From a phage, in NCBI GenBank assembly GCA_031856995.1, contig GCA_031856995.1_4356.1: a stretch of 43,888 bases of DNA; one strand, 5' to 3'. How positions within the stretch are numbered: the stretch's first letter is position 1; each line of letters begins with the position of its first letter. The notes below the pieces were generated by a model that saw only the letters and a program-made list of their open reading frames with translations, had not been told where the DNA came from and made no database searches. Positions 14,408 through 41,628 of this stretch are shown here, in pieces. A program made the translations under genes and the position numbers.

Positions 14408-14436
14408 TTGCGTACCCCAATATAATAGGGTACTAT
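14408..14436 (+). promoter_or_regulatory. sigma70-like promoter with palindromic core, driving the + strand island
   Basis: TTGCGT-17 nt-TACTAT with ATAATAGGGTACTATTC core; same element as at 32985-33013 and 34873-34901. Confidence 0.6.
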
Positions 14437-14451
14437 TCACTTACACCAACA

Positions 14452-14658
14452 ATGAAGGGGTTTAAAATGTCCAGTTTACCAGTTTCCTTAATTCTGTTTG
14501 CACTGCTCGCTTATTTCGCGCCTTTCCTGGTTGCGTACTTCCGTAACCATAAAGCGAAGTTAGCGATATTCATGGCTAATCTGTTTCTTGGTTGGGTTCT
14601 GCTGCCGTGGGTATTTATTTTAATCTGGGCTTGCAACTCGAACGTGAAAGAGAAGTAG
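14452..14658 (+). CDS. small membrane protein (two TM helices); likely start at ATG 14467
   Basis: MSSLPVSLILFALLAYFAPFLVAYF...LFLGWVLLPWVFILIWA; GAAGGGG RBS before 14467. Confidence 0.55.
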   Translation: MKGFKMSSLPVSLILFALLAYFAPFLVAYFRNHKAKLAIFMANLFLGWVLLPWVFILIWACNSNVKEK

Positions 14659-14696
14659 GCTACTATAAGACAAATCCTAAACACGAGGAAATAGGC

Positions 14697-15851
14697 ATGG
14701 CCCAGAAGAAAATAACCGACGAACAGTTACAGGAAGAATTGAACGCTGGGATGAAGAATATCGACATTGCTCGTAAATACGGCATCTCAGACCGCGTTAT
14801 TCGTATCCGTAAAGCGAAACTAGCGAAGAAAGGCGTAGGCCACGGGCGTGACGTTAGCCACCTTGTGCCGGACGGCTACAAGATTAAGGGTACATCGTCT
14901 CTGGTTGATGAGTTAGGCAACACTAAACTGCAATGGGTTAAGACCGACACCGATGCGGAACGTCAGGTCGAGTTAATGAAAGCCGTTGTGGACGAGATGA
15001 AAAAAGATTTACCCAAGTATAAGCCAGTCACTTTGGCCAAAAATGGGACAGATGACGACTTATTAAATCTTTACACAATAACAGACCATCACATAGGGAT
15101 GTTGGCGTGTCAAGAAGAAGGCGGGGATGATTACGACACCACAATCGCGGAATCTCTCGCGGTTGACTGGTTCAACAGTGCGGTTTGTATGAGTCCACAG
15201 AGTGGTGAATGTATCATTAACTTCTTAGGGGACCAAATGCACTACGACGGCATGAAGGCAATGACCCCTATGAGCGGTCATATTCTTTCAGCGGATAGTC
15301 GCCTGTTTAAAATGATACGCACGGCCATTAAGGTTATCAAGCTGGCTGTCTCACTGTGCTTGCGAAAACACAAGAAGGTTAAACTTCTTATCTGTGAAGG
15401 TAACCACGACCTTAGTTCTTCTCTGTGGCTCCGGGAGATGTTCTACGAGGTATACACAAATGAGCCTCGCGTCGAGGTTAACCGGGAGGTGTCACCGTAT
15501 TATGCGTACAAGTTCGGGGATTGTATGATTTCAGCACATCACGGGCATTGTTCTAACTTTGCTAAGGTAGAGCAGGCTATAATCGGTAAGTACCGGGAGA
15601 TGTACGGGCGGTGTAAGTTCACATATGTCCATACGGGGCACCTCCATCACAGGGCGGTTAAAGAGACTAATCTGCTAATTGTTGAGCAACACCAGACATT
15701 AGCGGCTAAAGATGAGTATTCTAGTAAGGGCGGCTATTATTCAGGTAGAAGCGCAAATGTGATTACATACCACAAACGTTACGGGGAGGTGTCCCGCATA
15801 AGTATACCTGTCGAAATGCTGCGAGACATAAACCCAAAATCGACATACTAA
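14697..15851 (+). CDS. HTH-domain protein fused to calcineurin-like metallophosphoesterase
   Basis: N-terminal HTH-like IDIARKYGISDRVIRIRKAKL; phosphoesterase motifs TDHHIG, GDQMHYDG, EGNHD, AHHGH, GHLHH in canonical order; ATG 14697 after GAGGA (track ORF begins 14592). Confidence 0.7.
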   Translation: MAQKKITDEQLQEELNAGMKNIDIARKYGISDRVIRIRKAKLAKKGVGHGRDVSHLVPDGYKIKGTSSLVDELGNTKLQWVKTDTDAERQVELMKAVVDEMKKDLPKYKPVTLAKNGTDDDLLNLYTITDHHIGMLACQEEGGDDYDTTIAESLAVDWFNSAVCMSPQSGECIINFLGDQMHYDGMKAMTPMSGHILSADSRLFKMIRTAIKVIKLAVSLCLRKHKKVKLLICEGNHDLSSSLWLREMFYEVYTNEPRVEVNREVSPYYAYKFGDCMISAHHGHCSNFAKVEQAIIGKYREMYGRCKFTYVHTGHLHHRAVKETNLLIVEQHQTLAAKDEYSSKGGYYSGRSANVITYHKRYGEVSRISIPVEMLRDINPKSTY

Positions 15852-15866
15852 AATATAGGTGAAAGT

Positions 15867-16367
15867 ATGGATTGGAGTGAGGTTTTTAGCTACAAAAATG
15901 GCGTCCTATACTGGAAAGTCAAATCATGTCGCCGTAACGATGTGAATATAGGTGATGTGGCCGGGAGTTTGTGTAAAAACGGCTATTGGTATGTCATGTT
16001 TGGTAACCGTAAGTTTAAAAGGTCGAGGGTGGTGTATGAGATGTTCTCAGGTAAGATTCCAAAAGGATTTGCCATAGACCATACTAACCATGATACCTGT
16101 GACGACAGAATTGAAAACCTGTCATGCAAATCTAGAAGGGACAACATGGTTAACGTGAAAAGGCGCAAAGATAATACCTCTGGAGTTACGGGTGTGGCGC
16201 GGAAAGGAAAAACTAAGTGGAGAGCTTATGCCGTTGTCAACGGTAAGCAGATTAGTAAAACATTTGACAGAATAGAGGACGCTTTCGCTGAAAGAATTTA
16301 CATGTCTGTGGCTAATAGGTTTCACATAAATCATGGACTGACAACATTCAACAACGGTTATAAATAG
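15867..16367 (+). CDS. HNH endonuclease with AP2-like DNA-binding domain
   Basis: IDHTNHDTCDDRIENL HNH motif; SGVTGVARKGKTKWRAYAVVNGKQISKTFDRIEDA AP2-like segment; AT-rich. Confidence 0.75.
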   Translation: MDWSEVFSYKNGVLYWKVKSCRRNDVNIGDVAGSLCKNGYWYVMFGNRKFKRSRVVYEMFSGKIPKGFAIDHTNHDTCDDRIENLSCKSRRDNMVNVKRRKDNTSGVTGVARKGKTKWRAYAVVNGKQISKTFDRIEDAFAERIYMSVANRFHINHGLTTFNNGYK

Positions 16368-16376
16368 GGTGTAGAG

Positions 16377-16610: not shown

Positions 16611-16640
16611 AAAGGCCCCGAAAGGGGCCTTAGTTTTATG
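16611..16640. terminator. Bidirectional rho-independent terminator (end of + island, after major tail protein gene)
   Basis: GGCCCCGaaaGGGGCC hairpin with A-run upstream and T-run downstream. Confidence 0.75.
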
Positions 16641-23299: not shown

Positions 23300-23550
23300 G
23301 TTTCTCCTTTCTCGATAAGTAAAGCCCCGCTTTAAGGCGGGGCGCTAGTCCTTATCATTTAAACATAGAAACGGCGTAATCTCAGTAAACCCGTTACTTT
23401 TTACACGAGCAATAGAGTATGGCCCTTCCGAACGCGTCAGCGTAACTACACTCATGACTTACGTCCCGCTCCGTTACCTGCCCGCGCCGCGGTCGCTTGT
23501 TCATACTTCACAAGCTCAGGTGGAGCTTAGCACATTTTTAGTGAAAAGTC

Positions 23551-23566
23551 AACTATTCGAATAGTT
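23551..23566. promoter_or_regulatory. Perfect 16-bp palindrome AACTATTCGAATAGTT
   Basis: Direct reading; half-sites are those of the recurring promoter palindrome but in inverted arrangement. Confidence 0.5.
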
Positions 23567-23604
23567 TATTCCTACATTTACAATTTGGTGGAATAACTGG
23601 AATA

Positions 23605-24103: not shown

Positions 24104-25179
24104 TATTCCCCTTTCAGATAATCAGCAACACGTTTATCGAGTTCCGCCATCTGCTTAAGCGTGAGCGGATTCCCGAAACCATCTACAGATATTACGCGAA
24201 ACTCTTCCGGCGATATACCGCTGTTACGGAAAATCTTACCCCGCACCGGGCCTAGAGCCTGGTCCTGAAACCATGCCGGTTGTTGTTTCAGGAACTCGTA
24301 GTAAGTGGTGTCTGCGCTTACCTGAGTACCTCCGTCCGCACCCTTAGCCGCGCGTTTTGCGCCTTTATCCAGGAAGTCGAACTCCGAACTGATTACCGGA
24401 GCCGTGCACGACCGGCAGTTCGGATGGGCGGGGGGCATCGGCCCTTTACCGATTTCCCACGTCATCCCATCTCTGGCCTTGCAAACGGCTGAGGTCCTAG
24501 AATCAAGAGTAGACACCCACTCATATTTCTCGATAATGTCGTCGTTCTGGCGGTACGTCTCATTACGGGCTTCGTTGGACACGTGGGACAGCGCGGTGCG
24601 GATTACTGTAGCAGCGTGTTTCTCTGATACGTCAGCCAGGCCGCCTTTACCAACTACTTCTTTAACAATCTGCCGTGTGGTTTGGCCTTGCACAAAGCCC
24701 ATCTTAACGCCAGTTACAAGGCGCGCGACCTCCGCTTCACCCCAGCCTGACATCAGCTTGGTGAAGTCAACAGGCTTGTCGCTCAACGATAAGGGTTGAA
24801 ACTCGGCGGCGGCCCACACCTGTTCAGCGGTAGGCGTAACAAATTCCGCGTTTACGTTGGCGGTCAGTGTCTTTACGTTCCACTCCGCCTCATACGCCGC
24901 CAGTTCCTTAAGGTCTTCTGTCAGCTTTGTTTGCCAGTCAACTGTAAGTCCAGCCAGTGCTTCTTCAAGGTCGCGTAACAGTTTATTCAGCCGGGCGGTG
25001 CTGCGGCCATCATCGCCGAATAACAGCACCTGCCGTTTGATTTCGTCCCGCATCTCCTGAATGAACGGTGCTAGGTCTTTCACCTCACCGGATGCAGTAC
25101 GTTGCAGCCATATCTGGTGGCTAATTAGAGATGTAAGTAAGCTCATAGATAAACCCTGCGGTGCTAAAGTTAATAGCAT
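24103..25179 (-). CDS. head morphogenesis protein (Mu F / SPP1 gp7-like)
   Basis: 358 aa directly after portal gene; C-terminal AHPNCRSC motif. Confidence 0.65.
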   Translation of the reverse strand: MLLTLAPQGLSMSLLTSLISHQIWLQRTASGEVKDLAPFIQEMRDEIKRQVLLFGDDGRSTARLNKLLRDLEEALAGLTVDWQTKLTEDLKELAAYEAEWNVKTLTANVNAEFVTPTAEQVWAAAEFQPLSLSDKPVDFTKLMSGWGEAEVARLVTGVKMGFVQGQTTRQIVKEVVGKGGLADVSEKHAATVIRTALSHVSNEARNETYRQNDDIIEKYEWVSTLDSRTSAVCKARDGMTWEIGKGPMPPAHPNCRSCTAPVISSEFDFLDKGAKRAAKGADGGTQVSADTTYYEFLKQQPAWFQDQALGPVRGKIFRNSGISPEEFRVISVDGFGNPLTLKQMAELDKRVADYLKGE

Positions 25180-25215
25180 ACTATAGGAAAGCCCCTTTCG
25201 GGGCTATAGATGAAC

Positions 25216-30407: not shown

Positions 30408-30436
30408 AATATAATAGGGTCGAGGATAATAGTCAA
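30408..30436 (-). promoter_or_regulatory. sigma70-like promoter (TTGACT-17 nt-TATATT on - strand)
   Basis: Hexamers with 17-nt spacer about 35 nt upstream of ATG 30373; leader contains AACGAGA shared with other phage promoters. Confidence 0.55.
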
Positions 30437-30454
30437 CTAGTCATTACAGAAAAC

Positions 30455-31206: not shown

Positions 31207-31456
31207 GCTTATGTCCTCCGTATGACAGCCACGCCTGACGAATCTGGCGCAGCGCAACTAATGTGATTAATGTCCCAGGCAGCGTTGGCGACATGCTGCC
31301 CTGTAACAGGTGGATGCATCCGGCAGCGCAAACGATAGCGGTCAGGATGTAGAGCACCCGACCAAATAACCCATCGTCAACACTGGGGTGGTATACATTA
31401 AACAGCGATGTGCCACCGATTGCCAGCATACCGCCGAACCAGAATAACTCATTCAT
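31184..31456 (-). CDS. holin/antiholin-like membrane protein
   Basis: 90 aa, two hydrophobic helices, basic C-terminus; directly upstream of endolysin. Confidence 0.55.
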   Translation of the reverse strand: MNELFWFGGMLAIGGTSLFNVYHPSVDDGLFGRVLYILTAIVCAAGCIHLLQGSMSPTLPGTLITLVALRQIRQAWLSYGGHKRVSKHFR

Positions 31457-31757
31457 CCGGGTCTCCTCGACGTGCGATGTATTCTCCGGCGACGATACCG
31501 GAGAGGCGGGAATAGATAGGCATCCAGAGAATAGCGATAATGAAGCCCAGGCCAGCTATCTCGCGTTCGCCGGTAATACCAAACCATTGGGCTGCGAGAG
31601 GCGCACCAAATACGGCGCAGGTGAAGCCGGTAGCGATAAAGCAGAAGCCATCAATAGGGCCAGAAATAACGGACTTATGTTGCCGTAGGCCGATTACCCC
31701 TCCGGCTAGTGCGGCAGCGAGAAGCCACCCCGTCACTGTTTCAGTAAATTTATCCAA
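31449..31757 (-). CDS. putative holin
   Basis: 102 aa with three hydrophobic segments and charged C-terminus; first gene of lysis cassette. Confidence 0.6.
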   Translation of the reverse strand: MDKFTETVTGWLLAAALAGGVIGLRQHKSVISGPIDGFCFIATGFTCAVFGAPLAAQWFGITGEREIAGLGFIIAILWMPIYSRLSGIVAGEYIARRGDPDE

Positions 31758-31832
31758 GATGAATCCTCCAGGTGCGTATTAAGTATGCAGTAACTGGAGG
31801 ATACCACGGGTAGGAATTATCCTAATAACGGT

Positions 31833-32126
31833 TTATTTATGTCTCCAGATGTATTGTCGTCTCTGTGGTTTCGTCGGGATATCATCGTATCCCAGCGATT
31901 TCCAGTAATTAAATAACCGATTAGAGATTGCAGCGCGTTCCTGTGTTTTAAACTCACCGAGGTTTACGGCCTTCCCGTTCTGGAATCCACAGGCGCGGAC
32001 AGCTTTACGCCGCTCTTGTATCTCAGGGAACAGTGCGTTACGGCGACGCTTGTGTATACGTGTCTTCGCTCTCGGTGACAGCGGCGCAAGGCCGCTTCGT
32101 TTCAGGATGTCAGTTGCTAACGACAT
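31833..32126 (-). CDS. hypothetical basic protein
   Basis: Track ORF 31833..32171; internal ATG at 32126 abuts upstream gene stop. Confidence 0.45.
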   Translation of the reverse strand: MSLATDILKRSGLAPLSPRAKTRIHKRRRNALFPEIQERRKAVRACGFQNGKAVNLGEFKTQERAAISNRLFNYWKSLGYDDIPTKPQRRQYIWRHK

Positions 32127-32395
32127 CACTCCACCCCCTCCACATGTGTAACTGACCCACAGTTCGCGCACTCGACGTAATCAGGGAACTGGTCTTTGTA
32201 TTTCTGTAACTCGGCTTCCGCTTTTTCTGCCCACGCTAAAAAGTCGAAAGCGGCATTGAGCATCTGCGTACGCCATGTCCTGAGTTCATTGAACTTACGC
32301 TCAAGTTCCGCGTAGTCTTCGTAACCAACCCAGTCACCATCGTCGTGCGGCCCTATTAAACCGCCTTGTAATAAATATCTCTGTACCATAATCAC
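32126..32395 (-). CDS. hypothetical protein
   Basis: 89 aa track ORF; C-terminal CANCGS. Confidence 0.5.
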   Translation of the reverse strand: MIMVQRYLLQGGLIGPHDDGDWVGYEDYAELERKFNELRTWRTQMLNAAFDFLAWAEKAEAELQKYKDQFPDYVECANCGSVTHVEGVE

Positions 32396-32610
32396 TTCTC
32401 CTGTTTACCAAGTCGCTTAGGTGAGCAGATAGCGCGTACCTCTGAATCGTTAGGCTTGTCGCCCTGAAACAAGAAGTGCGCGTTCTCTGCAGCGCGTGCC
32501 GCTGACTGGCACGCCTCCATCGAGTAAAACGTTTCTGATGCCGCTAGTTGCATCTGGCCAGCCGACAATACCCAGATAAATAAGATGCTGGTCATTTCTT
32601 TAACCCACAT
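32392..32610 (-). CDS. small secreted protein (signal peptide, two Cys)
   Basis: MTSILFIWVLSAGQMQLAAS signal-like N-terminus. Confidence 0.5.
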   Translation of the reverse strand: MWVKEMTSILFIWVLSAGQMQLAASETFYSMEACQSAARAAENAHFLFQGDKPNDSEVRAICSPKRLGKQEK

Positions 32611-32867
32611 TTAATGCACATACATGGAAACCCGACTCCGTAAAATTGCCATTCGTGTTCACGCTGTTTCTCCTTCCACCGTACCCACATCCGCTGAACC
32701 TCTGGTTCAGCGTAGCCATTGTCTTTCCGGGCCGGGGTGAACCCAAACCGGCTCCGGAACCATATTTCAAACTGCTGCAAAGTGAGTCTCACTTCCTGGT
32801 AACTTGAAGCCGTTGTCGGTCCGCGCCACGTTCCACTCAATCCCACCGTGGTACACAACCATGTCAT
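32592..32867 (-). CDS. hypothetical protein (overlaps 32767..32952 in another frame; true start uncertain)
   Basis: 91 aa track ORF; C-terminal CMCIKCG. Confidence 0.35.
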   Translation of the reverse strand: MTWLCTTVGLSGTWRGPTTASSYQEVRLTLQQFEIWFRSRFGFTPARKDNGYAEPEVQRMWVRWKEKQREHEWQFYGVGFPCMCIKCGLKK

Positions 32868-32952
32868 CTAAATCCAGGTCTATAACGGTTCCTACTTTGA
32901 AGATGCCTTTAGTCAGTTCACTGTCTCTTTTTGTAACTTTAACTTCTAACAT
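32767..32952 (-). CDS. hypothetical protein
   Basis: 61 aa ORF with GAGGAAAA RBS, first gene after promoter at 32985-33013. Confidence 0.5.
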   Translation of the reverse strand: MLEVKVTKRDSELTKGIFKVGTVIDLDLDDMVVYHGGIEWNVARTDNGFKLPGSETHFAAV

Positions 32953-32984
32953 TTCGTTTTCCTCTGTCTCGTCTGTGTAAATGA

Positions 32985-33013
32985 ATAGTAGCCTATTCTA
33001 TCTTAGTGTGCAA
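32985..33013 (-). promoter_or_regulatory. sigma70-like promoter with palindromic core
   Basis: On - strand TTGCAC-17 nt-TACTAT; core GAATAGTAGCCTATTC is a perfect 6+4+6 palindrome. Confidence 0.6.
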
Positions 33014-33020
33014 GTAAATT

Positions 33021-33191
33021 TTATTGGTGTTTTAAAGATAATCGTTCGCCACGAATCCAGTAGTACCTCGGGCGTCTGGCCCACTGGCACCAGCGCATAA
33101 CACGGTACTTGTTGCCGTCTGACGCAACAATAAGCCCGAATCGCTTTTCTCCGTTTCTACCGGTCCAGGTTACGATGTCATTCAGTTTCAT
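33021..33191 (-). CDS. small hypothetical protein (56 aa)
   Basis: ATG preceded by AGGAGA; MKLNDIVTWTGRNGEKRFGLIV... Confidence 0.4.
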   Translation of the reverse strand: MKLNDIVTWTGRNGEKRFGLIVASDGNKYRVMRWCQWARRPRYYWIRGERLSLKHQ

Positions 33192-33325
33192 TGTTGCGTC
33201 TCCTGCAATAGTCGCTTCGATTGTTGCGTTTGGTGAAAGTGTCGCCTTTTGACGACACTAAGTTAAAGTTGTACGCTGCTGTGTAGCAGCGTAAGTCACT
33301 CAGTAAAATCCCAAACTATTGAACA

Positions 33326-33526
33326 TCACACTTCCGGCGGCTCAGGTAACGGCATCCAGTGAGTCACGTACTTATCGTAGTGATTCCAGAAAGGCTTTCT
33401 CCCGTCATCAGGAACGATGTAATAATCGTGTTGAACTGCGTTATTTAACGTTTCATACACCAGGAATTCTTTATCTGTACTACCGTTGCCCGGCAGCATC
33501 TCACTACACTTAATCCACTCACCCAT
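33326..33526 (-). CDS. DUF551-like phage protein
   Basis: 66 aa ending ...WMPLPEPPEV, the W-x-PLPEPP signature I associate with DUF551. Confidence 0.5.
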   Translation of the reverse strand: MGEWIKCSEMLPGNGSTDKEFLVYETLNNAVQHDYYIVPDDGRKPFWNHYDKYVTHWMPLPEPPEV

Positions 33527-33529
33527 ATC

Positions 33530-33673
33530 TCACCTCGTATTCATCGCAGTTTGAACACCAGCTTTCCACGCCCGCCACGCGAGACGTGTCTTAACGTTCA
33601 GGTACTCTTTCTTTGAACCCTTGTTAACCGGCAGACCCTCGACGATGGCCCACCGTTCGAATGCTTCTCTCAT
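33530..33673 (-). CDS. small hypothetical protein (47 aa)
   Basis: ATGA coupling with upstream gene; MREAFERWAIVEGLPVNKG... Confidence 0.35.
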   Translation of the reverse strand: MREAFERWAIVEGLPVNKGSKKEYLNVKTRLAWRAWKAGVQTAMNTR

Positions 33674-33876
33674 AACTCAACCCCGTGGTGCTTAAGAAAA
33701 CTGTTTAACTTGTACTCACGGTACTGTGCTACCTCCTTAGCATGAGCCAAATGCCACGACTTCAACGGGGTGTACTTCGCCTTTTCCCAGCATTCAACAC
33801 CAAACTCGGCGGCGCGCAGACCGCCAATCAGACGGCGTAAGCGGAATTCGTTATACGGACTCATACCAACCTCCAC
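33670..33876 (-). CDS. hypothetical protein
   Basis: 68 aa track ORF. Confidence 0.5.
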   Translation of the reverse strand: MEVGMSPYNEFRLRRLIGGLRAAEFGVECWEKAKYTPLKSWHLAHAKEVAQYREYKLNSFLKHHGVEL

Positions 33877-33928
33877 AACGCGTGCACCACATAAACGGCG
33901 CTGATGATTAAAACAAACGGGTAATTAT

Positions 33929-34201
33929 TCATACCACCCCCATCTTCTCTTTAACGTGCACCCAGAACTCACCACAATACCAGCACCACATTAAATTCGG
34001 TGTCTCGCGAACCCAACCGTAATCCCCGCGTGCGCGAATAGGGATAACGCCTTTAATGAAATAATAACCTGTTCGCAGAAACTCAGGGTCGCGCGTCGCT
34101 GTGCGCCACATGTTATAAAACTGCTCCAGCCCGGCACCCCGACGCATGACCCGTACCTTATGAATGGTGTCAGAGACTTTTTCCAGTTCAGCGTTATTCA
34201 T
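33929..34201 (-). CDS. hypothetical protein
   Basis: 90 aa track ORF, coupled to upstream gene. Confidence 0.5.
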   Translation of the reverse strand: MNNAELEKVSDTIHKVRVMRRGAGLEQFYNMWRTATRDPEFLRTGYYFIKGVIPIRARGDYGWVRETPNLMWCWYCGEFWVHVKEKMGVV

Positions 34202-34419
34202 TTACGGCAACCTCCCTCAGAGTCGTCGGCACGAGCATCATGATTCGGTGCCGGTTCGAGTAAAGTGACCACACCACTTTCCTTCGTCAGAAGGATGTAA
34301 ACCGTCCGCAAATGTGCGTACTGTTTTAGCCAGGGACCGATTTCGGATTTACTGTTGAATTCTTTACTGGCTATGGTTTGTTTTGTCTCTTTCGATTTAA
34401 TCTCTAGCTTAATCATCAC
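34198..34419 (-). CDS. hypothetical protein
   Basis: 73 aa track ORF. Confidence 0.5.
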   Translation of the reverse strand: MMIKLEIKSKETKQTIASKEFNSKSEIGPWLKQYAHLRTVYILLTKESGVVTLLEPAPNHDARADDSEGGCRK

Positions 34420-34610
34420 TTCGCCCCTTTGAATTTAAAATTGTTGCCGATGAGTGTTAAATTATCTCTGAAAGCGTAACCATGTTTCTTTCGTACAAGA
34501 CCCCATACGTCTACAGCGGTACTATATTCATCCTCATTCTGGGTAACTATTACGTACTGTCCGCCGCGTTTTGTTTTAACCAACTGACCCTTCTTAAACA
34601 TAACCATCAC
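34416..34610 (-). CDS. hypothetical protein
   Basis: 64 aa track ORF. Confidence 0.5.
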   Translation of the reverse strand: MMVMFKKGQLVKTKRGGQYVIVTQNEDEYSTAVDVWGLVRKKHGYAFRDNLTLIGNNFKFKGAK

Positions 34611-34619
34611 TCCTCTGTC

Positions 34620-34838
34620 TTATTTAAAGTAGATAGCAAATTTCTTGTAACCCGCTGGCTCGTTACGAAGTCCTTTACCGTTAGCGAAACGTTGTACGTT
34701 AACAAAATCATTTTCATCCATTCCGTCGGTGTCGAACGTAAAGAAGTTGCGCTTGTTCCCGATAATTACGCGCTCTGAGATATCGATGCCGTAAACTTCT
34801 TTGATTGCGGAAACTACGCTTGCGGTCGCTTTGTTCAT
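34620..34838 (-). CDS. hypothetical protein (first - strand early gene)
   Basis: 72 aa ORF with AAGGAA RBS, directly downstream of promoter 34873-34901. Confidence 0.55.
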   Translation of the reverse strand: MNKATASVVSAIKEVYGIDISERVIIGNKRNFFTFDTDGMDENDFVNVQRFANGKGLRNEPAGYKKFAIYFK

Positions 34839-34872
34839 TTCTAAATTCCTTATGTCTCGTTTCGATAAGTGA

Positions 34873-34901
34873 ATAGTAACCTATTATGTTGGGGTGTGCA
34901 A
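34873..34901 (-). promoter_or_regulatory. sigma70-like promoter with palindromic core (leftward early promoter)
   Basis: On - strand TTGCAC-17 nt-TACTAT; core GAATAGTAACCTATT. Confidence 0.6.
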
Positions 34902-34973
34902 GAGAATAGTTACGTTGCCGTTGTGATTCTTCGGGGAGGGTTGTGCCTTTATTCTTATTACTTGGTAACTAAA

Positions 34974-34993
34974 GGGCAGGCTTAAGCCTGCCC
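34974..34993. other. Perfect stem-loop GGGCAGGCttaaGCCTGCCC in the divergent intergenic (origin-like) region
   Basis: 8-bp perfect inverted repeat with 4-nt loop. Confidence 0.6.
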
Positions 34994-35259
34994 AATAATC
35001 GTTACATTTTTACGGTTGCGAATCTACGGCACATTAAGAAACAGTAGATATTTCAGCGGGTTACTTCTTTAAATGAGATTTAGATACACTTATCCTTAAA
35101 CCCCAAGGCAAGCATCTCAGCTGTCTGGGAGGGGTTGACGAATCCCTCGGGGAGGGTTCGTCAACTCCGTAATATATACAAGTCCCAAAACCATTATACA
35201 AACATGTGTCAAGAACTTTCAATAACATTTTTGTAAAGATTAAATATTACAGAGATTGG

Positions 35260-35288
35260 TTGCTTTTACATTCCCGCTATCCTATACT
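35260..35288 (+). promoter_or_regulatory. sigma70-like rightward early promoter
   Basis: TTGCTT-17 nt-TATACT about 30 nt upstream of ATG 35320; preceded by AT-rich tract. Confidence 0.55.
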
Positions 35289-35319
35289 CAGTTTCACCAA
35301 ACAAACAGGAGATATAAAA

Positions 35320-35502
35320 ATGTCGCATTATATGACGCAGAATGAAGTAGCTGAACGTATCGGGGTGACACGTCAGACAATTAATAACTGGTTGCGCAGC
35401 GGCAAATTCCCTGACTGCTGTATTAAGGTTATGGGCCGCCGTTTACCGGGAACATTTGACCGTAATAAAGTCGAAGCATGGATTAAGGAGAACGTGAAAT
35501 GA
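35320..35502 (+). CDS. small HTH DNA-binding protein (AlpA/excisionase-like fold)
   Basis: MTQNEVAERIGVTRQTINNWLRSGKFP; ATG 35320 after AGGAGA (track ORF starts 35206). Confidence 0.6.
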   Translation: MSHYMTQNEVAERIGVTRQTINNWLRSGKFPDCCIKVMGRRLPGTFDRNKVEAWIKENVK

Positions 35503-35789
35503 AAGGCGTAATTTTCCACAATAAAGCAGAAAACGAAGTGTATATGGTTCACTCCGTGGCAGGAGAGTTCGCTTTATGCTTCAATATCTCTTGCCATCTT
35601 GATACCTACCGGCCTTTCTGCGTAGAAACAGAAATGAAGCTAATTAGCTTACGCCAACTAAGCACCATGTCGGCATCGCTTAACGTAAGAGATAATCTCG
35701 AGTATATCGACTTCTATTTCGGCGATGATTTGGTCGAGGAATATTTTGAAGAGTATAAAAATTTGCTGGAAGGGTTGGCTAAACGGTAA
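35499..35789 (+). CDS. hypothetical protein
   Basis: 96 aa track ORF, ATGA-coupled to HTH gene. Confidence 0.5.
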   Translation: MKGVIFHNKAENEVYMVHSVAGEFALCFNISCHLDTYRPFCVETEMKLISLRQLSTMSASLNVRDNLEYIDFYFGDDLVEEYFEEYKNLLEGLAKR

Positions 35790-35858
35790 AAAGAAACCCC
35801 AACGCAAGAACGTCGGGGCCAAAGCACAAATCATCAAAGTAAGCACAAGGATTATACA

Positions 35859-35987
35859 ATGACGAAGTTAATAGTTCCACAGCTGCGCCGACAGAAACAC
35901 GGCGCCGATTTCTTCGCGCCGGTAAAGATGAACCGCGCAATGCGCCGTATGCAGGAAGCCTTAGAACGTGCGGAGAAAAAGAAATGA
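35859..35987 (+). CDS. small basic protein (42 aa)
   Basis: MTKLIVPQLRRQKHGADFFAPVKMNRAMRRMQEALERAEKKK; stop overlaps ATG 35984. Confidence 0.35.
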   Translation: MTKLIVPQLRRQKHGADFFAPVKMNRAMRRMQEALERAEKKK

Positions 35988-38206
35988 ATATTGTTTTTGC
36001 AACGCTGCGTAACACATTCGATAAAAACCCTGTAGCGCGTGAAATGCCGCTGGAGCAGTTTGTCGAGTATGTCTGCGATACATCGAAGCGTTTATCCGTG
36101 GACCCGTCATGGACTAAGGAAGAGTACGACGCTGCCAAGATTAAACAGAAAGCTATTGCGCCTGTTGGTGGTCGCCGTAAAAACGCTATCCTGGAAGACA
36201 GTGTGGTTAAGTTCGATTTCGACCATCTCAACCGTACTCAGTACCGCGACCTGACACGCAAATTCAAGAACGCGCCGTTCTTCAATATTCTGCACACAAC
36301 GGCATCGCATCAGCACGCATGTAAAAACGGAGATTACGCTTTCCGCGTTCTGGTTCCAGCTCGCACGCCGTTTAACTCTAACGACGCGTGGATGGTGCAA
36401 CGTGCTATTTGTGCAGAGTTAGAAATAGACGAAGCGTTGCGCGACCACTGCACAGAAGACGGCAACCGCCTTATCTACCTGCCGCATAAAGAGTCGAAGA
36501 TAACGGTTACAGAAGGGCGTGTTATCCGTGCTGAGCGGTACATCAAGAAAGCCGAAGAGATGGGGTTGCGTAAGCGTGAGGCTAAAACACTTGCCGCTGA
36601 TGAGCATGGGCTTAACGCGGATATAGCACACTTCTGCGAAGCCGAGCTTGGCCTTGACGCTTTATCTTCCGGGCGCGGGTACGAAGTGCCATGCCCTAAC
36701 GAACATCTGCATACAGGCAAGGGCTCCACCAGCATAATGCTCGACGGTAAAGAAGTGCGCTTTGTCTGCCAGCATACAAACAACGGCGCTTGCACCGAGC
36801 TTAACCGTAGGCAGCATTTGGCCCTGCGTATGTGTGGCCTACCCGACGAGCTTAACATAGATAAGCAACCTATCAGCATTAACAGCATTCGTGCGGCTCT
36901 GCCTGATTTACCGGAAGAAGAGATTGAAGAACTACACCGCACAGAGAACGAGGACCCAGTAACTTGCAGCCTCGACGACCTGGAAGACGACGAGGACTCA
37001 GAGGAGGACGAGTTACCGGAGCCGGTAAAGGCTGATTTCGTCGTTGAGGGGTACATGCCGTCGGATTGTATCTGGGATATCGTCGGGGAATCTGGCACGT
37101 ACAAATCGTTCTATACGCTGGGGATGATGTACCTCAGCGCCGCCGGGTACAGGTTTGCGGGGGCGGATACCCAGCGTTGCCACCATTTCTATATTGATGG
37201 TGAGGGTGGCGCAGCTACACGCACCCGTATTGATGCACTAGCGGCTAAATATGGCGGGGAAGGTAAAGATTATGTACACGTCATCGATATGGGCGAAGTC
37301 GGCAAACTTAAAAGCCTGATTAAGTTAATGCGCGAAACTGCTGGCGACGAGCCAATTGGCATGGTTGCGTTCGACACCCTTAACCAGACCCTGGCACTGA
37401 CGATTGATAAGTTCGACGAGAACAGTTCATCAACAGCAATCGGCATGGGTAAAGTTATCGCCATTCTGAAAGAAGTACGCGATGCAACTAAAGCCGCAGT
37501 AGGCGTTGTCCACCATACGCCGAAGGGTGGAAAGAAAGCACGCGGCAGTGGGGCGCTGTATGCGGGTGTTGACGTGGAACTGACAATCGAACGTGCAACC
37601 GACCGTCAGATAAACGTATATCACTCGAAATTCAAGCACGGGCCTCAGCAGAAGACGGTTGGCATGGTGCTGGAGTCGGTACAGTTCCGTGAAGCGCCGC
37701 CGCCTAAAGAATACCGAGCGGTTGAGTTCCTGGGTAGCACAGAGGAATACGGCACAATCGTAAACCTGGACCTGCCTGAACCACACAAGGCGCTTGTGTT
37801 GATGCCGTGGGGTTTCGAGCCGTTCAAAACTGACGAGGAGAAAGAGCGGGAAGAAGGGTTGACGAAAGAAGGTAAGCAAAAAGTAAAGGAAGAAGTTAAA
37901 CGCGGCAGGGATGAAGTAAGGAAGGAGTCAATACTTTCGGCACTGGAAGACCTGCAACAGTCAGATGACACAGGTCGCGGTTTTACTCAGCAGCAGATAG
38001 TGGCTCGTTCCGGTGACTTCTCTGTGACTAACACCCATCTTGATAAAATGTTGAAAGATGGAGAACTAATGCTTGGTTGCGATGCTAACGGCGAAGTAGT
38101 ACCGAGAACATATCGTATACCCGAAAGAATAGGTGATAGATTAAGGCCGAAGACACTATACGAACCAAATGAGATGCTGGTGGTGACAGAGGAGGATTTG
38201 GAATAG
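35984..38206 (+). CDS. replication initiation primase/helicase-like protein (N-terminal Zn-binding primase-like region plus RecA-like ATPase)
   Basis: 740 aa; Walker A-like VGESGTYKSF, Walker B-like IGMVAFDTL, Cys/His cluster CPNEHLHTGKG...CQHTNNGAC, acidic linker. Confidence 0.6.
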   Translation: MNIVFATLRNTFDKNPVAREMPLEQFVEYVCDTSKRLSVDPSWTKEEYDAAKIKQKAIAPVGGRRKNAILEDSVVKFDFDHLNRTQYRDLTRKFKNAPFFNILHTTASHQHACKNGDYAFRVLVPARTPFNSNDAWMVQRAICAELEIDEALRDHCTEDGNRLIYLPHKESKITVTEGRVIRAERYIKKAEEMGLRKREAKTLAADEHGLNADIAHFCEAELGLDALSSGRGYEVPCPNEHLHTGKGSTSIMLDGKEVRFVCQHTNNGACTELNRRQHLALRMCGLPDELNIDKQPISINSIRAALPDLPEEEIEELHRTENEDPVTCSLDDLEDDEDSEEDELPEPVKADFVVEGYMPSDCIWDIVGESGTYKSFYTLGMMYLSAAGYRFAGADTQRCHHFYIDGEGGAATRTRIDALAAKYGGEGKDYVHVIDMGEVGKLKSLIKLMRETAGDEPIGMVAFDTLNQTLALTIDKFDENSSSTAIGMGKVIAILKEVRDATKAAVGVVHHTPKGGKKARGSGALYAGVDVELTIERATDRQINVYHSKFKHGPQQKTVGMVLESVQFREAPPPKEYRAVEFLGSTEEYGTIVNLDLPEPHKALVLMPWGFEPFKTDEEKEREEGLTKEGKQKVKEEVKRGRDEVRKESILSALEDLQQSDDTGRGFTQQQIVARSGDFSVTNTHLDKMLKDGELMLGCDANGEVVPRTYRIPERIGDRLRPKTLYEPNEMLVVTEEDLE

Positions 38207-38211
38207 GTAAA

Positions 38212-38235
38212 AAGAAAGGGGCGTTACGCCCCTTC
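38212..38235. terminator. Bidirectional terminator hairpin
   Basis: GGGGCGttaCGCCCC with A-rich 5' flank (T-run on - strand). Confidence 0.55.
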
Positions 38236-38439
38236 ACCTAGCGCCAGCCACTTGGCGTCTACTTCCAGCACTTCCGCCAGTTTAAACAGCGTTGCCGGGC
38301 GTACGTCCTGAGTTACCCCGAGTGCAAGCTGGTTAATCGCGCCCTGGGAAACGCCGGCCAGAACAGCCAGACGGCGCTGGGAGATACCGAGTTCTTTACG
38401 GCGTTGCTCTACACGGATGCCTAGTTCAGATGGTTGCAT
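38224..38439 (-). CDS. XRE-family (Cro/CI-like) HTH transcriptional regulator
   Basis: 71 aa; ISQRRLAVLAGVSQGAINQLALG classic HTH; AAGGAG RBS; divergent from + strand genes. Confidence 0.75.
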   Translation of the reverse strand: MQPSELGIRVEQRRKELGISQRRLAVLAGVSQGAINQLALGVTQDVRPATLFKLAEVLEVDAKWLALGEGA

Positions 38440-38454
38440 GTCAGTTACTCCTTA

Positions 38455-38490
38455 GTCAGTTGATATGTGAATAGTACCATATTAATTATT
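38455..38490 (-). promoter_or_regulatory. Promoter/operator element for the leftward HTH gene
   Basis: Palindromic core GAATAGTACCATATT; on - strand TACTATTCAC box matching -10 regions of the TTGCAC promoters. Confidence 0.45.
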
Positions 38491-38503
38491 TTAGAAAAGC
38501 CCA

Positions 38504-38532
38504 TTGACATGTGAATAGTTCGCTATTATAGT
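38504..38532 (+). promoter_or_regulatory. sigma70-like rightward promoter with palindromic core
   Basis: TTGACA-17 nt-TATAGT; core GAATAGTTCGCTATT. Confidence 0.6.
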
Positions 38533-38560
38533 TAGCCCATACCAAACGAGAGGGGCAGAT

Positions 38561-38788
38561 ATGAACACAATCACTGGGGCCATAGCTAAAGGTTTTCGAG
38601 CAATTTTCGGCGCTCCGCAAGAAGTGTGCACAAAACATAAATTTGTACTTTCTTGCGTAGTAGGGGATGAGTTTGATGGGTTCGATAAACTTGTTGTCTG
38701 TGACCATTGCGGGCAAGAAGCTATTCAACACTCAAACGGTAAATTTGAACTAATAGACGATAGCCTTACTGAAGGCGACGGTGAGTAA
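38561..38788 (+). CDS. hypothetical protein with CxxC
   Basis: 75 aa; GAGAGGGG RBS; CDHCGQE motif. Confidence 0.5.
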   Translation: MNTITGAIAKGFRAIFGAPQEVCTKHKFVLSCVVGDEFDGFDKLVVCDHCGQEAIQHSNGKFELIDDSLTEGDGE

Positions 38789-38812
38789 CTTACACAAACA
38801 GGAGAGAAACAA

Positions 38813-39313
38813 ATGTTAGAGAAATTCTTAGTATTGCTGGAACGTTTCGTAGTTGCACATGAACTGATTGCCGCGAACAGTGCGAAACAAGTTGTTCAGG
38901 TTGCCACGCCGCTGGAAGTAGAGACGGTATCGTACACCAAAGAAGCGGTAGCTGAGTGCGCTGAAGAAGCAACAAAAGAAATCCCGGTTGAAGGTGAAGA
39001 CGTAGTTGACACTAAACCGGCGGAGGAAGAGAAGCCAAAACGCAAGCCGCGTAAAGCTAAAGTAGAGGAACCTGCGCCAGAACCGGAAGAAGAGAAAGAA
39101 GAAGTCGATTACAAGTCTCTGCGTGACCAGATTCAGGCCATCGACGATGCAATTAATGAAGGTCCTAGCGATGCCGCGTGCGACGATTCTGATGAACTGC
39201 TGGAAGAGTTCACTGGTAAGAAAATGAAGATTGCAGCGATTAAAGACGAAGACCTGGCTGAATACCTGGAACGCTTGACAGCAATCAAGAACAAGTATTT
39301 CGAAGAAGAATAA
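38813..39313 (+). CDS. hypothetical acidic protein
   Basis: 166 aa, Glu/Lys-rich; followed by terminator. Confidence 0.5.
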   Translation: MLEKFLVLLERFVVAHELIAANSAKQVVQVATPLEVETVSYTKEAVAECAEEATKEIPVEGEDVVDTKPAEEEKPKRKPRKAKVEEPAPEPEEEKEEVDYKSLRDQIQAIDDAINEGPSDAACDDSDELLEEFTGKKMKIAAIKDEDLAEYLERLTAIKNKYFEEE

Positions 39314-39320
39314 TTATCTG

Positions 39321-39340
39321 GCGGCCTTCGGGCCGCTTTA
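39321..39340 (+). terminator. Rho-independent terminator
   Basis: GCGGCCttcgGGCCGC followed by TTTA. Confidence 0.6.
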
Positions 39341-39356
39341 ACTGAGGGTCGTAATA

Positions 39357-39572
39357 ATGAGTAACGTATACAAAGTAATAAACGAACAAATAGTTGTAGA
39401 AATAAGTGACTCATATGTGGGTTGTCAGCAATTCTTTGTTTTGAATGGTGCGTGGCGCGGGACTCTTGACTATGCCGCTGGCGAATATTGGGCGGACATG
39501 TACCCAACCGATAAAACGGCGGTACATACAATTCGTCCCGCCGTTAAAGGTGAATTTGCGCCGTACTACTGA
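39357..39572 (+). CDS. hypothetical protein
   Basis: 71 aa ORF preceded by conserved ACTGAGGGTCG initiation motif. Confidence 0.5.
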   Translation: MSNVYKVINEQIVVEISDSYVGCQQFFVLNGAWRGTLDYAAGEYWADMYPTDKTAVHTIRPAVKGEFAPYY

Positions 39573-39583
39573 GGGTCGGAATT

Positions 39584-39787
39584 ATGGCTATTTTAGCTAA
39601 GAAAAGTGGTCTTATGATTTCTGGCAGCGTTGTCGCTGAAAATGATTTGGTTTACGTATTTCAGGCGGTAGACAACAAACACCCTACGACGGTCAAGAAG
39701 GCCAGCAAAGTTGAGAAGGTTTTCGACGGCGATTTTTCTATTGACGATGTTTTCACGTGGATTAATTCTGCGAGGGTAAGGAAATGA
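39584..39787 (+). CDS. hypothetical protein
   Basis: 67 aa ORF preceded by ACTGAGGGTCG motif. Confidence 0.5.
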   Translation: MAILAKKSGLMISGSVVAENDLVYVFQAVDNKHPTTVKKASKVEKVFDGDFSIDDVFTWINSARVRK

Positions 39788-40056
39788 TTTACCAACTCTA
39801 CCGCGCCGTCGACAGGCGGGACAACACAGAGGCACTATGGCTGTTGCGTGCGCCGTCCGGAGCGCACCAGATGGAAGAGATGGCTTACTTAGGCAAAGTA
39901 CCGCGGCCTAAAGATATAGGCCGTCACGTGTCACAGATTAAGCGCACGACATTCGCCAAGCCAGACTTTTATGTCTTTGAGTCGATGTATGGGTGGGCTA
40001 TGCACTGCGAACATAAGACGCGACATTTAATCGACCAGTGGGAGAGCAGGGTATGA
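39784..40056 (+). CDS. hypothetical protein
   Basis: 90 aa ORF, ATGA coupled. Confidence 0.5.
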   Translation: MIYQLYRAVDRRDNTEALWLLRAPSGAHQMEEMAYLGKVPRPKDIGRHVSQIKRTTFAKPDFYVFESMYGWAMHCEHKTRHLIDQWESRV

Positions 40057-40202
40057 CAAGGTACGCGATAATTGTAGAAATAGACGGTAAAGACCAGGAA
40101 CACAGCCGCTACGCACGTTTGGACGAAGCCCAGTACATCTTCTACACATTCGGCTTCGCACGCAGTTTCACTAATGCGCGTATTGTGGAGATTGCAGAAT
40201 GA
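40053..40202 (+). CDS. small hypothetical protein (49 aa)
   Basis: ATGA coupling at both ends; MTRYAIIVEIDGKDQEHSRY... Confidence 0.35.
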   Translation: MTRYAIIVEIDGKDQEHSRYARLDEAQYIFYTFGFARSFTNARIVEIAE

Positions 40203-40357
40203 CGAACCGTAAAGCGCGACTTCTCTTTATTAAATGTCACCAGCCTTTTCGAGTAAGCAACTCGACTTGGCTGATTATATTCAACCGTAGCGGTGACACG
40301 TGCGCCTACAAGCGCAAAACGCGTAAAGTTAAATGGGGTGGGAGTTTAAGAGCATGA
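40199..40357 (+). CDS. small basic protein (52 aa)
   Basis: ATGA coupling at both ends; MTNRKARLLFIKCHQPF... Confidence 0.35.
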   Translation: MTNRKARLLFIKCHQPFRVSNSTWLIIFNRSGDTCAYKRKTRKVKWGGSLRA

Positions 40358-41595
40358 AACTAAAAGAACGAGGCGGCAATAATGATGTACACGCCTTACT
40401 GTCACCGTCAGGCGCTAAAAAGTGGCTGTCATGCGCTGCGTCGCTGGCGTGTGAAAAAGATATCCCTAACACGTCGGGTAAAGCCGCTGTATCAGGAACC
40501 GCCATGCACACCATAGCTGAGGTCCATCTCAACGCCTATATACGCGGCACTGCGTTGCCGTTGGAGCGTGAAGTCGGCGCTTACGTGCTGGACGAGGGTA
40601 AAGGCCAGATTAAGGCGCTAATTAGCCAGATGAAAGGCGCGGTACTGATTACGGCTGACATGATTGAGCAGGTGCGCAAGTACACCGACTACTGCAAAGC
40701 GATTATCGACGTAGCGACTTACGCCAAGCTGGAAATGCGGGTAAATCTTACTGAGGTATTGCATCCGGGTTACGAAGGCGTTGAGACGTTCGGAACCGCT
40801 GACCTTGTTGCCGTTCAGGAACTGGCGAACACTGACGAGCATATGCTCATTATCGGCGACCTGAAAACAGGACGGCATCATGTCGAAGCGAAAGAAAACA
40901 AGCAGCTTATGCTCTACGCTCTCGGTGTTTACCGCCGACTCAAGAGACGTTATAACATATCAGTAGTGCGCCTGGTCATCTTCCAGCCGTACGCCGGGGG
41001 CGCGTCGGAGTGGGACATCTCGGTTGAAGGTCTGGAACTGTTCGCTAAGTTCGCACAGAAACGCGCACTGTTAGCCCTTGATGCGTATTTCCGAGGCAAG
41101 AAGAACCTGAAAGCGTCGGACTTTAAGCCGTCTGTCGACGGTTGTCAGTGGTGTCGGTTCTCTGAACAGTGCGCAGCGCGTACAAAGACGGTTAATTCTG
41201 TACTTGCCGAAGAACTGGAGGACGACTTTGCGCTGGAACTTACGCCGGAGCAACTCGTAGCTGAATATGAGAAGTTGCCGTTGTTGCGCCAGCACATCGA
41301 TAAGGTCGAAAAAGCTATGGCTGCTGCGTTGCATTCCGGTAAGAAAGTGCCAGGGTACAAGCTGGTGGAAGGTCGCCCAGGTAATCGTGCGTGGAAAGAC
41401 GCAGAGAAAGTAGCAGAACTCTACGGCGACAAGCTGACTAAAGAAGTGCTCCTGACGCCGACCGAAGCGGTTAAAGTAATACCAGAAGAAGAACTGAAAG
41501 ACTTCATCACACGTAAGCCGGGGGCGCCATGCGTCACAACAGCGGACGACAAACGTCCTGAGTGGAATAAGGTTAGTGAAGAAGATTTAGAATAA
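40354..41595 (+). CDS. PD-(D/E)xK exonuclease, Cas4/RecB-like with probable Fe-S cysteines
   Basis: GTADLV, IGDLKTG (D..K), QLMLYALG, and cysteines LSCAASLAC near N-terminus plus CQWCRFSEQC near C-terminus; ATG 40354 after GGGAG (track ORF starts 40333). Confidence 0.7.
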   Translation: MKLKERGGNNDVHALLSPSGAKKWLSCAASLACEKDIPNTSGKAAVSGTAMHTIAEVHLNAYIRGTALPLEREVGAYVLDEGKGQIKALISQMKGAVLITADMIEQVRKYTDYCKAIIDVATYAKLEMRVNLTEVLHPGYEGVETFGTADLVAVQELANTDEHMLIIGDLKTGRHHVEAKENKQLMLYALGVYRRLKRRYNISVVRLVIFQPYAGGASEWDISVEGLELFAKFAQKRALLALDAYFRGKKNLKASDFKPSVDGCQWCRFSEQCAARTKTVNSVLAEELEDDFALELTPEQLVAEYEKLPLLRQHIDKVEKAMAAALHSGKKVPGYKLVEGRPGNRAWKDAEKVAELYGDKLTKEVLLTPTEAVKVIPEEELKDFITRKPGAPCVTTADDKRPEWNKVSEEDLE

Positions 41596-41599
41596 AGTG

Positions 41600-41628
41600 T
41601 TGACATCTGAATAGTTAGCTATTATAGT
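41600..41628 (+). promoter_or_regulatory. sigma70-like promoter with palindromic core
   Basis: TTGACA-17 nt-TATAGT; core GAATAGTTAGCTATT. Confidence 0.6.

Follow-up and report, generated by a model that had tools for sequence, protein, structure and literature searches.

The phage genome analysed here (GCA_031856995.1, contig GCA_031856995.1_4356.1; 43,888 bases, hereafter the window) carries a recurring 14-bp palindrome, AATAG-N4-CTATT, laid over core promoters of the host type. With its flanks the element reads (G/T)AATAG-N4-CTATTA, and it is probably the operator of a phage-encoded repressor resembling 434 Cro, a 71-amino-acid (aa) protein encoded at 38439..38224. Behind this reading stand the existence and enrichment of the sites, their coincidence with consensus promoters, and their retention in other genera, as well as the fold and family to which the protein belongs. 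The window holds the complete genome of a phage of the genus Kagunavirus, subfamily Guernseyvirinae, and is circularly closed. An exact 77-bp repeat stands at 1-77 and 43812-43888, so the true genome length is 43,811 bp, and the DNA polymerase gene spans the junction of the two ends. Over its last 13.9 kb (30000-43888) the window shares ~97% identity with Escherichia phages JSSK01 and vB_EcoS_XY1, and this segment has matches in 465 Guernseyvirinae records. JSSK01 is classed as a Kagunavirus; such phages are virulent siphoviruses related to Jerseyvirus and Cornellvirus.

The palindrome is far more frequent in the window than chance allows. Six exact copies of AATAG-N4-CTATT are present against 0.02 expected, and none of 100 dinucleotide-preserving shuffles reached six. 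With up to one mismatch, the count is 12 against 1.14 expected. When all exact 5+5 dyads with gaps of 0-8 were counted over the whole genome, it was the most frequent, terminator hairpins aside. A previous sequence-only reading of the window had listed six sites and proposed a motif scan as the check on their frequency. The motif is indeed commoner than composition predicts, and all six sites lie where they had been placed, including the perfect 16-mer at 32983-32998; the one at 38470 carries a single mismatch. That list was incomplete: a strong site at 2118-2131, the seventh, was not on it, nor were three weaker sites at 30428-30441, 23544-23557, and 25172-25185. The strong sites are thus the six exact cores plus 38470-38483, and a matrix derived from relatives gives the weak ones 10-14 bits. 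The matrix scan showed a clean gap between these ten sites and the next-best match (2.6 bits), and otherwise returned nothing beyond the mismatch search.

Every strong dyad overlaps a sigma-70-type core promoter (Table 1), promoters and starts being called here from the consensus alone. In four promoters the dyad lies across the -10: TTGCGT/TTGCAC-17-TACTAT at 14408(+), 33013(-), and 34901(-), and a version with a weak -35 at 38498(-). In three others it fills the spacer of TTGACA/TTGACG-17-TATAGT, at 2108(+), 38504(+), and 41600(+). Both layouts had been described before and hold on the window sequence, the second gaining the 2108(+) promoter. A third register, with the dyad over the -35, is found in TTGACT-17-TATATT at 30436(-). 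Taking the transcription start 7 nt after the -10, the dyad centres fall at about -12.5 (across the -10), -18.5 (spacer), and -33.5 (over the -35), and the Jerseyvirus SETP7 adds a further register centred at about -15.5. Both orientations occur in the window as well: read as GTGAATAG..., the motif faces the direction of transcription where it fills the spacer and the opposite direction where it spans the -10. A sigma-70 consensus scan of 28-43.9 kb found 16 matches, against 16.3 expected from shuffles. Therefore, the dyad, not the hexamers, marks the promoter sites. The 38504 and 41600 promoters are two of the three 11/12 consensus matches within that segment. As a hairpin, the dyad has stems of 5-6 bp and just -1.5 to -3.2 kcal/mol. 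This marginal energy, together with its position upstream of the inferred starts, points to an element that works at the DNA level; on the same grounds an RNA or DNA hairpin was rejected. No Rfam family has a match within the window. In general, several registers and both orientations with a constant overlap with the polymerase footprint fit the operator of a steric repressor. Such variation does not suit a promoter element or an activator site with a set position, nor a site at which an antiterminator loads.

The repeat itself is already known. In the fBC-Eco01 paper, PHIRE returned seven "phage RNAP promoters" with the consensus tgAATAGTa-ccTATTat-T (PMC9825357). The available text of the Golestan paper gives seven PHIRE promoters, at least three of which carry the same dyad (PMC7203180). 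As far as the available text of these papers goes, it is the same repeat as here, in seven copies per genome at the same relative positions; it is treated there as a promoter, and the palindrome, its orientations, the sigma-70 overlap, and a link to an HTH_XRE protein are not mentioned in that text. None of the papers found in our literature search links the repeat to a repressor or an operator. What is new is the recognition of a palindrome over sigma-70 hexamers in several registers and its proposed link to a repressor gene. The published label implies that a phage-encoded RNA polymerase (RNAP) starts transcription at the repeat, an explanation to which we assign almost no probability. No RNA polymerase gene is annotated in the three complete relatives Bas70, SETP7, and SP-031, so the label is probably wrong. 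The three listed open reading frames (ORFs) of at least 700 aa correspond, by position relative to Bas70, to a tail protein, the tape measure, and the helicase-primase, leaving none unassigned. In addition, promoters of T7-like polymerases are asymmetric motifs with a single orientation and a fixed distance to the start, whereas the present motif is a palindrome embedded in sigma-70 hexamers that varies in its register and can face either way relative to the gene downstream.

The promoter overlap could also arise without any dedicated binder, if the dyad were a by-product of back-to-back -10-like hexamers (TATTAT/TAATAT, one per strand), possibly in bidirectional promoters. A half-site with its flank, CTATTAT, does hold a 5/6 match to the -10 hexamer. 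At SETP7 14330, the halves can be the -10s of divergent TTGACG-17-TATTAA and TTGCAT-17-TATTAT, and the right half of the Cornellvirus dyad frequently coincides with the -10, TAATAT. In the window, however, the register between the half-site and the working -10, as fixed by the 17-nt spacing, is not constant (TACTAT, TATAGT), and in one case the dyad lies over the -35 instead. Conservation extends to the G/C positions and to the exact 4-nt spacing, neither of which any promoter rule requires, and most dyad sites have no opposite-strand gene to serve. We consider this origin decidedly unlikely.

The spacer layout also recalls the elements at which Q and AlpA load, as at lambda PR' and Pseudomonas aeruginosa PalpB, and the genome holds many intrinsic terminators that such an antiterminator could read through. 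The AlpA protein is 142 residues long or more and inserts an N-terminal segment into the RNA exit channel; it acts as a single molecule on a 6-bp non-palindromic element with a -10-like pause site (PMC9371919). The candidate proteins here, in contrast, have 60 and 71 aa, and the dyad also lies across the -10 and over the -35. A Q/AlpA-like loading site is therefore extremely unlikely and was rejected because both the size of the proteins and the type of element differ; a pause element was not systematically searched for. Activation of the MerR type, in which a MerR-family dimer on a dyad in an over-long spacer of 19-20 bp realigns the hexamers, was rejected as well, since the spacers here measure 17 nt and the MerR_1 score of the 60-aa candidate is below the cut-off.

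The preferred binder of the operator is the Cro-like protein. It belongs to Pfam HTH_3 (E 2.3e-12; 47.2 bits against a cut-off of 23; residues 11-65), and its best PDB match by phmmer is 434 Cro (E 2e-6), itself 71 aa long and a dimer on 14-bp operators. An AlphaFold2 model (mean predicted local distance difference test, pLDDT, 81.7) has five helices, and its top Foldseek match is 2cro with template modelling scores of 0.74/0.81. The next matches are the controller proteins C.AhdI and C.BclI, SinR, HipB, and the 434 and P22 repressors, which are known for binding palindromic sites as dimers. The protein has no C-terminal oligomerisation or peptidase domain, and database records name the gene "transcriptional repressor", "DicA", or "Cro". 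The sequence-only reading had called it Cro-like and had called 35320..35502(+) a helix-turn-helix protein; the Pfam assignments agree with both calls. A terminator at 38215..38235 leaves the Cro-like gene monocistronic and convergent with the helicase-primase gene.

The arrangement of dyads at this gene supports the assignment. The divergent 120-bp region upstream of it holds two of them, 38470-38483 and 38514-38527, with centres 44 bp apart. The 38470-38483 dyad, on the gene's own promoter, has the weakened form AATAGTACCATATT (CCATATT); the same form is present in fBC-Eco01, and the site is degenerate in the SETP7 ortholog. The gene has a further candidate promoter, TTCACA-16-TAAAAT (10/12; 38488-38515, minus strand), whose -35 overlaps the 38514 dyad. 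This alternative would put the 38470 dyad at about +1 and resembles the back-to-back PRM/PR arrangement. Within Kagunavirus the protein is 94-100% identical, except for one outlier locus at 78%. In the annotations of Bas70, SETP7, and SP-031, it is the only DNA-binding regulator common to all three genera. Taken together, the overlap with promoters, the conservation at orthologous promoters described below, and the two dyads at the Cro-like gene support the initial idea of a small dimeric regulator whose operators lie over host-type promoters and control both arms and the island; this idea held up in all the computational checks made.

The dyad has been kept at orthologous promoters although the intergenic DNA has otherwise diverged between genera. 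Each of the 37 related Kagunavirus contigs, with protein identities of 78% or more, has 2-6 exact dyads, and their relative positions agree. In 159 instances from this genus, roughly every second half-site has G as its outer flank, and a site usually combines one G-half with one T-half. SETP7, with ~70% or less nucleotide identity to the window in the promoter region, has five exact dyads and nine with up to one mismatch (1.6 expected). They stand at orthologous promoters: those of the immunity and single-strand-binding genes, the divergent region, the small-gene blocks, and the pre-terminase position. Twelve further Jerseyvirus loci contain 37 exact cores with T on the outer flank in 74 of 74 half-sites, which extends the element to a 16-bp TAATAG-N4-CTATTA. 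AATAG-N4-CTATT was not found in the Cornellviruses FSL SP-031 and vB_SenTO17. A related 18-bp dyad, ATAWTA-N6-TAWTAT, occurs there instead (9 against 1.31 expected in FSL SP-031; 4 against 0.56 in vB_SenTO17) and overlaps orthologous promoters as the -10 itself or across the -35. Because dyads recur at orthologous promoters in all three genera, the operator-in-promoter architecture would be subfamily-wide and the operator sequences genus-specific. The Cornellvirus control region is wired differently from that of the other two genera; in both Cornellviruses the helicase-primase gene follows the Cro-like gene on the same strand, and the HTH_17 gene found at 35320..35502 in the window is absent. 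A large protein search for distant Cro-like homologues that share the recognition helix outside the subfamily returned only proteins of at least 77% identity, the long ones on contigs of 28-45 kb, and two distant Cro-like loci (L040 and L056; 38-39% identity) had no dyad.

The recognition helix of the Cro-like protein varies along the same lines. It is SQGAINQ in 38 of 39 Kagunavirus copies, SQSLITH in Jerseyvirus, and TQSAISH in Cornellvirus, and the operator flank shifts alongside it, from G or T in Kagunavirus to the invariant T of Jerseyvirus. A helix variant, SQSAINQ, occurs at locus L037. A different protein might nevertheless occupy the dyad, either a host transcription factor or a small unannotated phage protein. 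No family could be detected for some half of the small early genes, and the AATAG core is clean in two genera whose Cro-like recognition helices differ. However, Cornellvirus and Jerseyvirus both infect Salmonella and yet differ in their dyads, which argues against a shared host factor. We know of no E. coli regulator with the AATAG-N4-CTATT consensus and spacing; the spacings of ArgR, OxyR, and CRP do not fit. Moreover, two dyads flanking the Cro-like gene are the usual mark of an autoregulated regulator. A binder of this kind is, in our view, unlikely.

The second candidate named in the sequence-only reading is the HTH_17 protein, an excisionase/MerR-like winged helix of 60 aa (Pfam HTH_17 E 1.6e-8; MerR_1 18.4 bits, below the cut-off of 21.6). 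It would be made early from a dyad-free promoter (TTGCTT-17-TATACT, 35260-35288, shared with the helicase-primase gene), bind the dyad, and repress or modulate the other promoters, with the Cro-like gene as one of its targets. We at first favoured this protein for its co-occurrence with the motif and its conservation. Its homologues, 443 records all at least 60% identical, are confined to Kagunavirus and Jerseyvirus, and it is 82% identical between these two genera, against 51% for the Cro-like protein. A helix-turn-helix gene that is probably its counterpart is early in RNA-seq of the Kagunavirus K1B4 (PMC12645636). Its recognition helix, on the other hand, has three variants within Kagunavirus (TRQTINNW, TRRTLNNW, and S[TP]MTLNRW), while the dyad and its flanks stay unchanged. 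TRRTLNNW is common to Jerseyvirus and some Kagunaviruses, yet their flanks differ. The Cornellviruses have a related dyad at orthologous promoters without any HTH_17 protein. Small excisionase/MerR-like winged-helix proteins usually act on direct repeats or as monomers rather than on short palindromes; the PDB matches of this protein are weak. The HTH_17 protein was therefore downgraded to an improbable binder, in view of its helix variants with an unchanged motif and the Cornellvirus dyad, and only the Cro-like half of the earlier pair of candidates remains favoured.

Several observations weigh against the Cro-like protein as the binder, or against a simple early repressor. The G-containing AATAG core co-occurs with the HTH_17 gene and is absent from Cornellvirus, which lacks that gene. 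Kagunavirus and Jerseyvirus share the AATAG core, although their Cro-like proteins are 51% identical and differ in four of the seven aligned recognition-helix residues. Jerseyvirus and Cornellvirus, whose operators differ more, have the helices that look more alike. The covariation at genus level comprises very few independent events and is not clean. The promoters with the dyad across the -10 match the sigma-70 consensus poorly (7/12). If the 14424 dyad also gates the tail operon, as discussed below, it would not fit a simple shut-off of early genes. Finally, the immunity, methylase, and polymerase genes of K1B4, some of which lie downstream of dyad promoters here, peak late; the helix-turn-helix gene is early, and a "specific DNA binding" gene beside an AAA-domain gene is middle (PMC12645636). 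That time series is of low resolution, the infection was not synchronous, and its genes were mapped to the window by function name and gene order, so we do not lean on it.

From the sequence evidence we infer that the dyad promoters are active, that the Cro-like protein binds the dyads, and that binding represses. In the proposed mechanism, host sigma-70 RNA polymerase would fire all dyad promoters on phage entry. Transcription from these 7-8 promoters would cover the early small genes, replication and recombination, the island with the immunity and HNH genes, the operon of the SNF2 helicase, and the gene of the repressor. The Cro-like protein would build up from its own weak promoter until its dimers fill the operators, exclude polymerase, and throttle the early and replication units together. 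Since the operator on its own promoter is weakened, that promoter would be repressed last, giving late negative autoregulation. The HTH_17/helicase-primase promoter has no operator and would escape repression. A more far-reaching version, which we regard as possible but doubtful, has one Cro-like protein governing almost every host-type promoter across the virulent Guernseyvirinae, perhaps including a bidirectional tail promoter. Operator and helix would then have co-diverged into at least three, possibly orthogonal, sets: (G/T)AATAG-N4 in Kagunavirus, TAATAG-N4 in Jerseyvirus, and ATAWTA-N6 in Cornellvirus.

If the operator reading is right, the published "phage-polymerase promoter" label would be corrected, and a likely master regulator would be named together with 7-10 targets. 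One 71-aa protein and one 14-bp site would form a testable circuit. In the more far-reaching version, a genome-wide governor of this sort could set transcription dosage in a lytic phage, and it could silence superinfecting relatives much like an immunity repressor, though with no lysogeny involved. The circuit may also provide synthetic biology with a small family of natural repressor/operator pairs, and phage engineering with a handle. Kagunaviruses and Jerseyviruses are isolated widely and have been proposed for therapy and food safety.

Table 1. Palindrome sites, the promoters that contain them, and the two helix-turn-helix genes, by position in the window
Feature	Coordinates	Strand	Remark
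Exact AATAG-N4-CTATT cores	2118-2131, 14424-14437, 32984-32997, 34872-34885, 38514-38527, 41610-41623		pattern search
Promoter TTGACG-17-TATAGT, dyad AATAGCAAACTATT (2118-2131) in spacer	2108..2136	+	inside 3' end of ORF 1855..2139
Promoter TTGCGT-17-TACTAT, dyad 14424-14437 across -10	14408..14437	+	
Weak dyad AAAAGTCAACTATT, 13.7 bits	23544..23557		in 340-bp intergenic gap, beside everted palindrome AACTATTCGAATAGTT
Weak dyad AATAGCATACTATA, 10.1 bits	25172..25185		over head-morphogenesis start codon, just after portal terminator
Promoter TTGACT-17-TATATT, imperfect dyad ACTAG-TTGA-CTATT (30428-30441) centred on -35	30408..30441	-	
Promoter TTGCAC-17-TACTAT, perfect 16-bp palindrome GAATAGTAGCCTATTC (32983-32998) across -10	32983..33013	-	
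Promoter TTGCAC-17-TACTAT, dyad 34872-34885 across -10	34872..34901	-	
HTH_17 protein, 60 aa, excisionase/MerR-like winged helix	35320..35502	+	
Intrinsic terminator	38215..38235	-	overlaps end of Cro-like gene
Cro-like protein, 71 aa, single-domain HTH_3	38224..38439	-	proposed repressor
Cro-like gene promoter: poor -35 TTTTCT, 16-nt spacer, TACTAT	38470..38498	-	
Promoter TTGACA-17-TATAGT (11/12), dyad 38514-38527 in spacer	38504..38532	+	
Promoter TTGACA-17-TATAGT (11/12), dyad 41610-41623 in spacer	41600..41628	+	

The 2108 promoter precedes a 63-aa gene, an SNF2 helicase (2358..3782), and a 171-aa gene. The 14408 promoter reads into an opposite-strand island coding for a superinfection-immunity protein, an HNH endonuclease, and proteins of 419 and 76 aa. 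The Bas70 gene in the position of the 419-aa one is annotated as a DNA repair exonuclease. The HNH endonuclease is of the HNH_3 homing type (15867-16367). Relatives carry HNH genes at differing places, three of them in SETP7, so these genes appear to be mobile insertions. The other half-site of the 14424 dyad offers a candidate minus-strand promoter, TTGGTG-16-TATTAT, facing the tail operon. Considering also that the halves of a SETP7 dyad can be divergent -10s, the 14424 operator may gate late (tail) genes as well. The 30408..30441 promoter follows two terminators and heads the operon of small, terminase, and structural genes; its SETP7 ortholog has the imperfect half on the opposite side. 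The 33013 promoter leads to small genes running towards the lysis genes, and the 34901 promoter to the small-gene block 34838..33021. The 38504 promoter serves a 75-aa and a 166-aa gene and continues through to the exonuclease, and the 41600 promoter serves the gp2.5-like single-stranded DNA-binding protein and the DNA polymerase.

Some of the leaders have features of their own. In most Kagunaviruses, homology to the window ends exactly after the 38504 promoter and its leader (query position 404), and the 75-aa gene beyond (38553-38790) is ~85% identical in nucleotides to genes of the T7-like Kayfunaviruses LM33_P1 and PM139. This pattern points to an exchange of gene cassettes at a promoter that is itself conserved. 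In the leader of the gp2.5-like gene (41633-41660) there is a hairpin, CACTGGCCGGGCAG..CCCGG, common to Kagunavirus, Jerseyvirus, and Cornellvirus despite differing flanks, and could be an element of translational or attenuation control. An AACGAGA box had also been proposed as a shared leader feature. It survives as a positional feature of about half of the leaders, but not as an enriched one, with six copies genome-wide against 6.0 expected. Three of the six (30389-30395, 34855-34861, and 38545-38551) stand 11-12 nt after the -10 of a dyad promoter, and GACGAGA, with one mismatch, stands ~11 nt after the -10 of the 33013 promoter. Where present, in roughly every second dyad leader, the core ACGAGA box occupies transcript positions of about +5 to +11; it is not always a ribosome-binding site, and it has the same placement in SETP7 leaders.

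The gap between the head-decoration and spanin genes (23540-23575) holds the weak 23544 dyad, AACTATTCGAATAGTT, and a GAATA-N3-TATTC dyad. The last of these recurs in the orthologous gap of Cornellvirus SP-031 (locus L042, 25438 and 26596), and Bas70 has at this gap an extra opposite-strand gene with a full dyad promoter. The 25172 dyad may be a chance or weak site; PHIRE also picked this site in phage Golestan, according to the available text of that paper (PMC7203180). The 400-bp gap at 34906-35320 is free of dyads. On its minus strand stands a strong promoter, TTGAAA-18-TATAAT (35222..35193); an inverted repeat of 15 nt (35131-35168) and a terminator (34993..34974) are also present. No Rfam family matches this gap, which may represent an origin region or give rise to a small transcript. 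The two places in the genome at which convergent operons meet, 4433-4452 and 16612-16631, have bidirectional terminators of near-identical sequence, AAGGCCCC-N4-GGGGCCTT, and similar hairpins recur in Cornellvirus SP-031.

Repression of sigma-70 promoters by a Cro-type protein is textbook in kind; the new setting is a virulent subfamily, in which such control would be genome-wide with genus-specific operators. In phages 434 and lambda, Cro turns down early transcription in lytic growth. Like 434 Cro, the protein described here is a 71-aa HTH_3 protein, its putative 14-bp sites have conserved outer bases and a variable centre and lie over core promoters, and its gene sits in a divergent control region. 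Unlike in 434, there is no CI partner, integrase, or lysogeny in the annotations of Bas70 and SETP7, and single operators lie over 7-10 promoters instead of tripartite OL and OR (OL1-3, OR1-3). The half-site is AATAG instead of ACAA, and the centre is 4 bp instead of 6. The Cro-like gene has its own promoter and terminator, whereas 434 cro is the first gene of PR. A lambdoid CI/Cro immunity region was rejected, because neither a CI-type repressor nor an integrase is annotated in these two relatives and the operators are single, with two in the divergent region. The controller proteins C.AhdI and C.BclI are similar as small XRE dimers with palindromic boxes in their own promoter and concentration-dependent control. 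They differ in having one or two adjacent boxes at a single promoter, where they can also activate, whereas the sites here are single and lie over many promoters. Remnant cro-like and immunity genes occur in virulent siphoviruses, and the present gene resembles them as a Cro-type gene kept in a strictly lytic genome. Given its high conservation within the genus and its apparent tie to genome-wide operators, however, the Cro-like protein looks functional and not vestigial.

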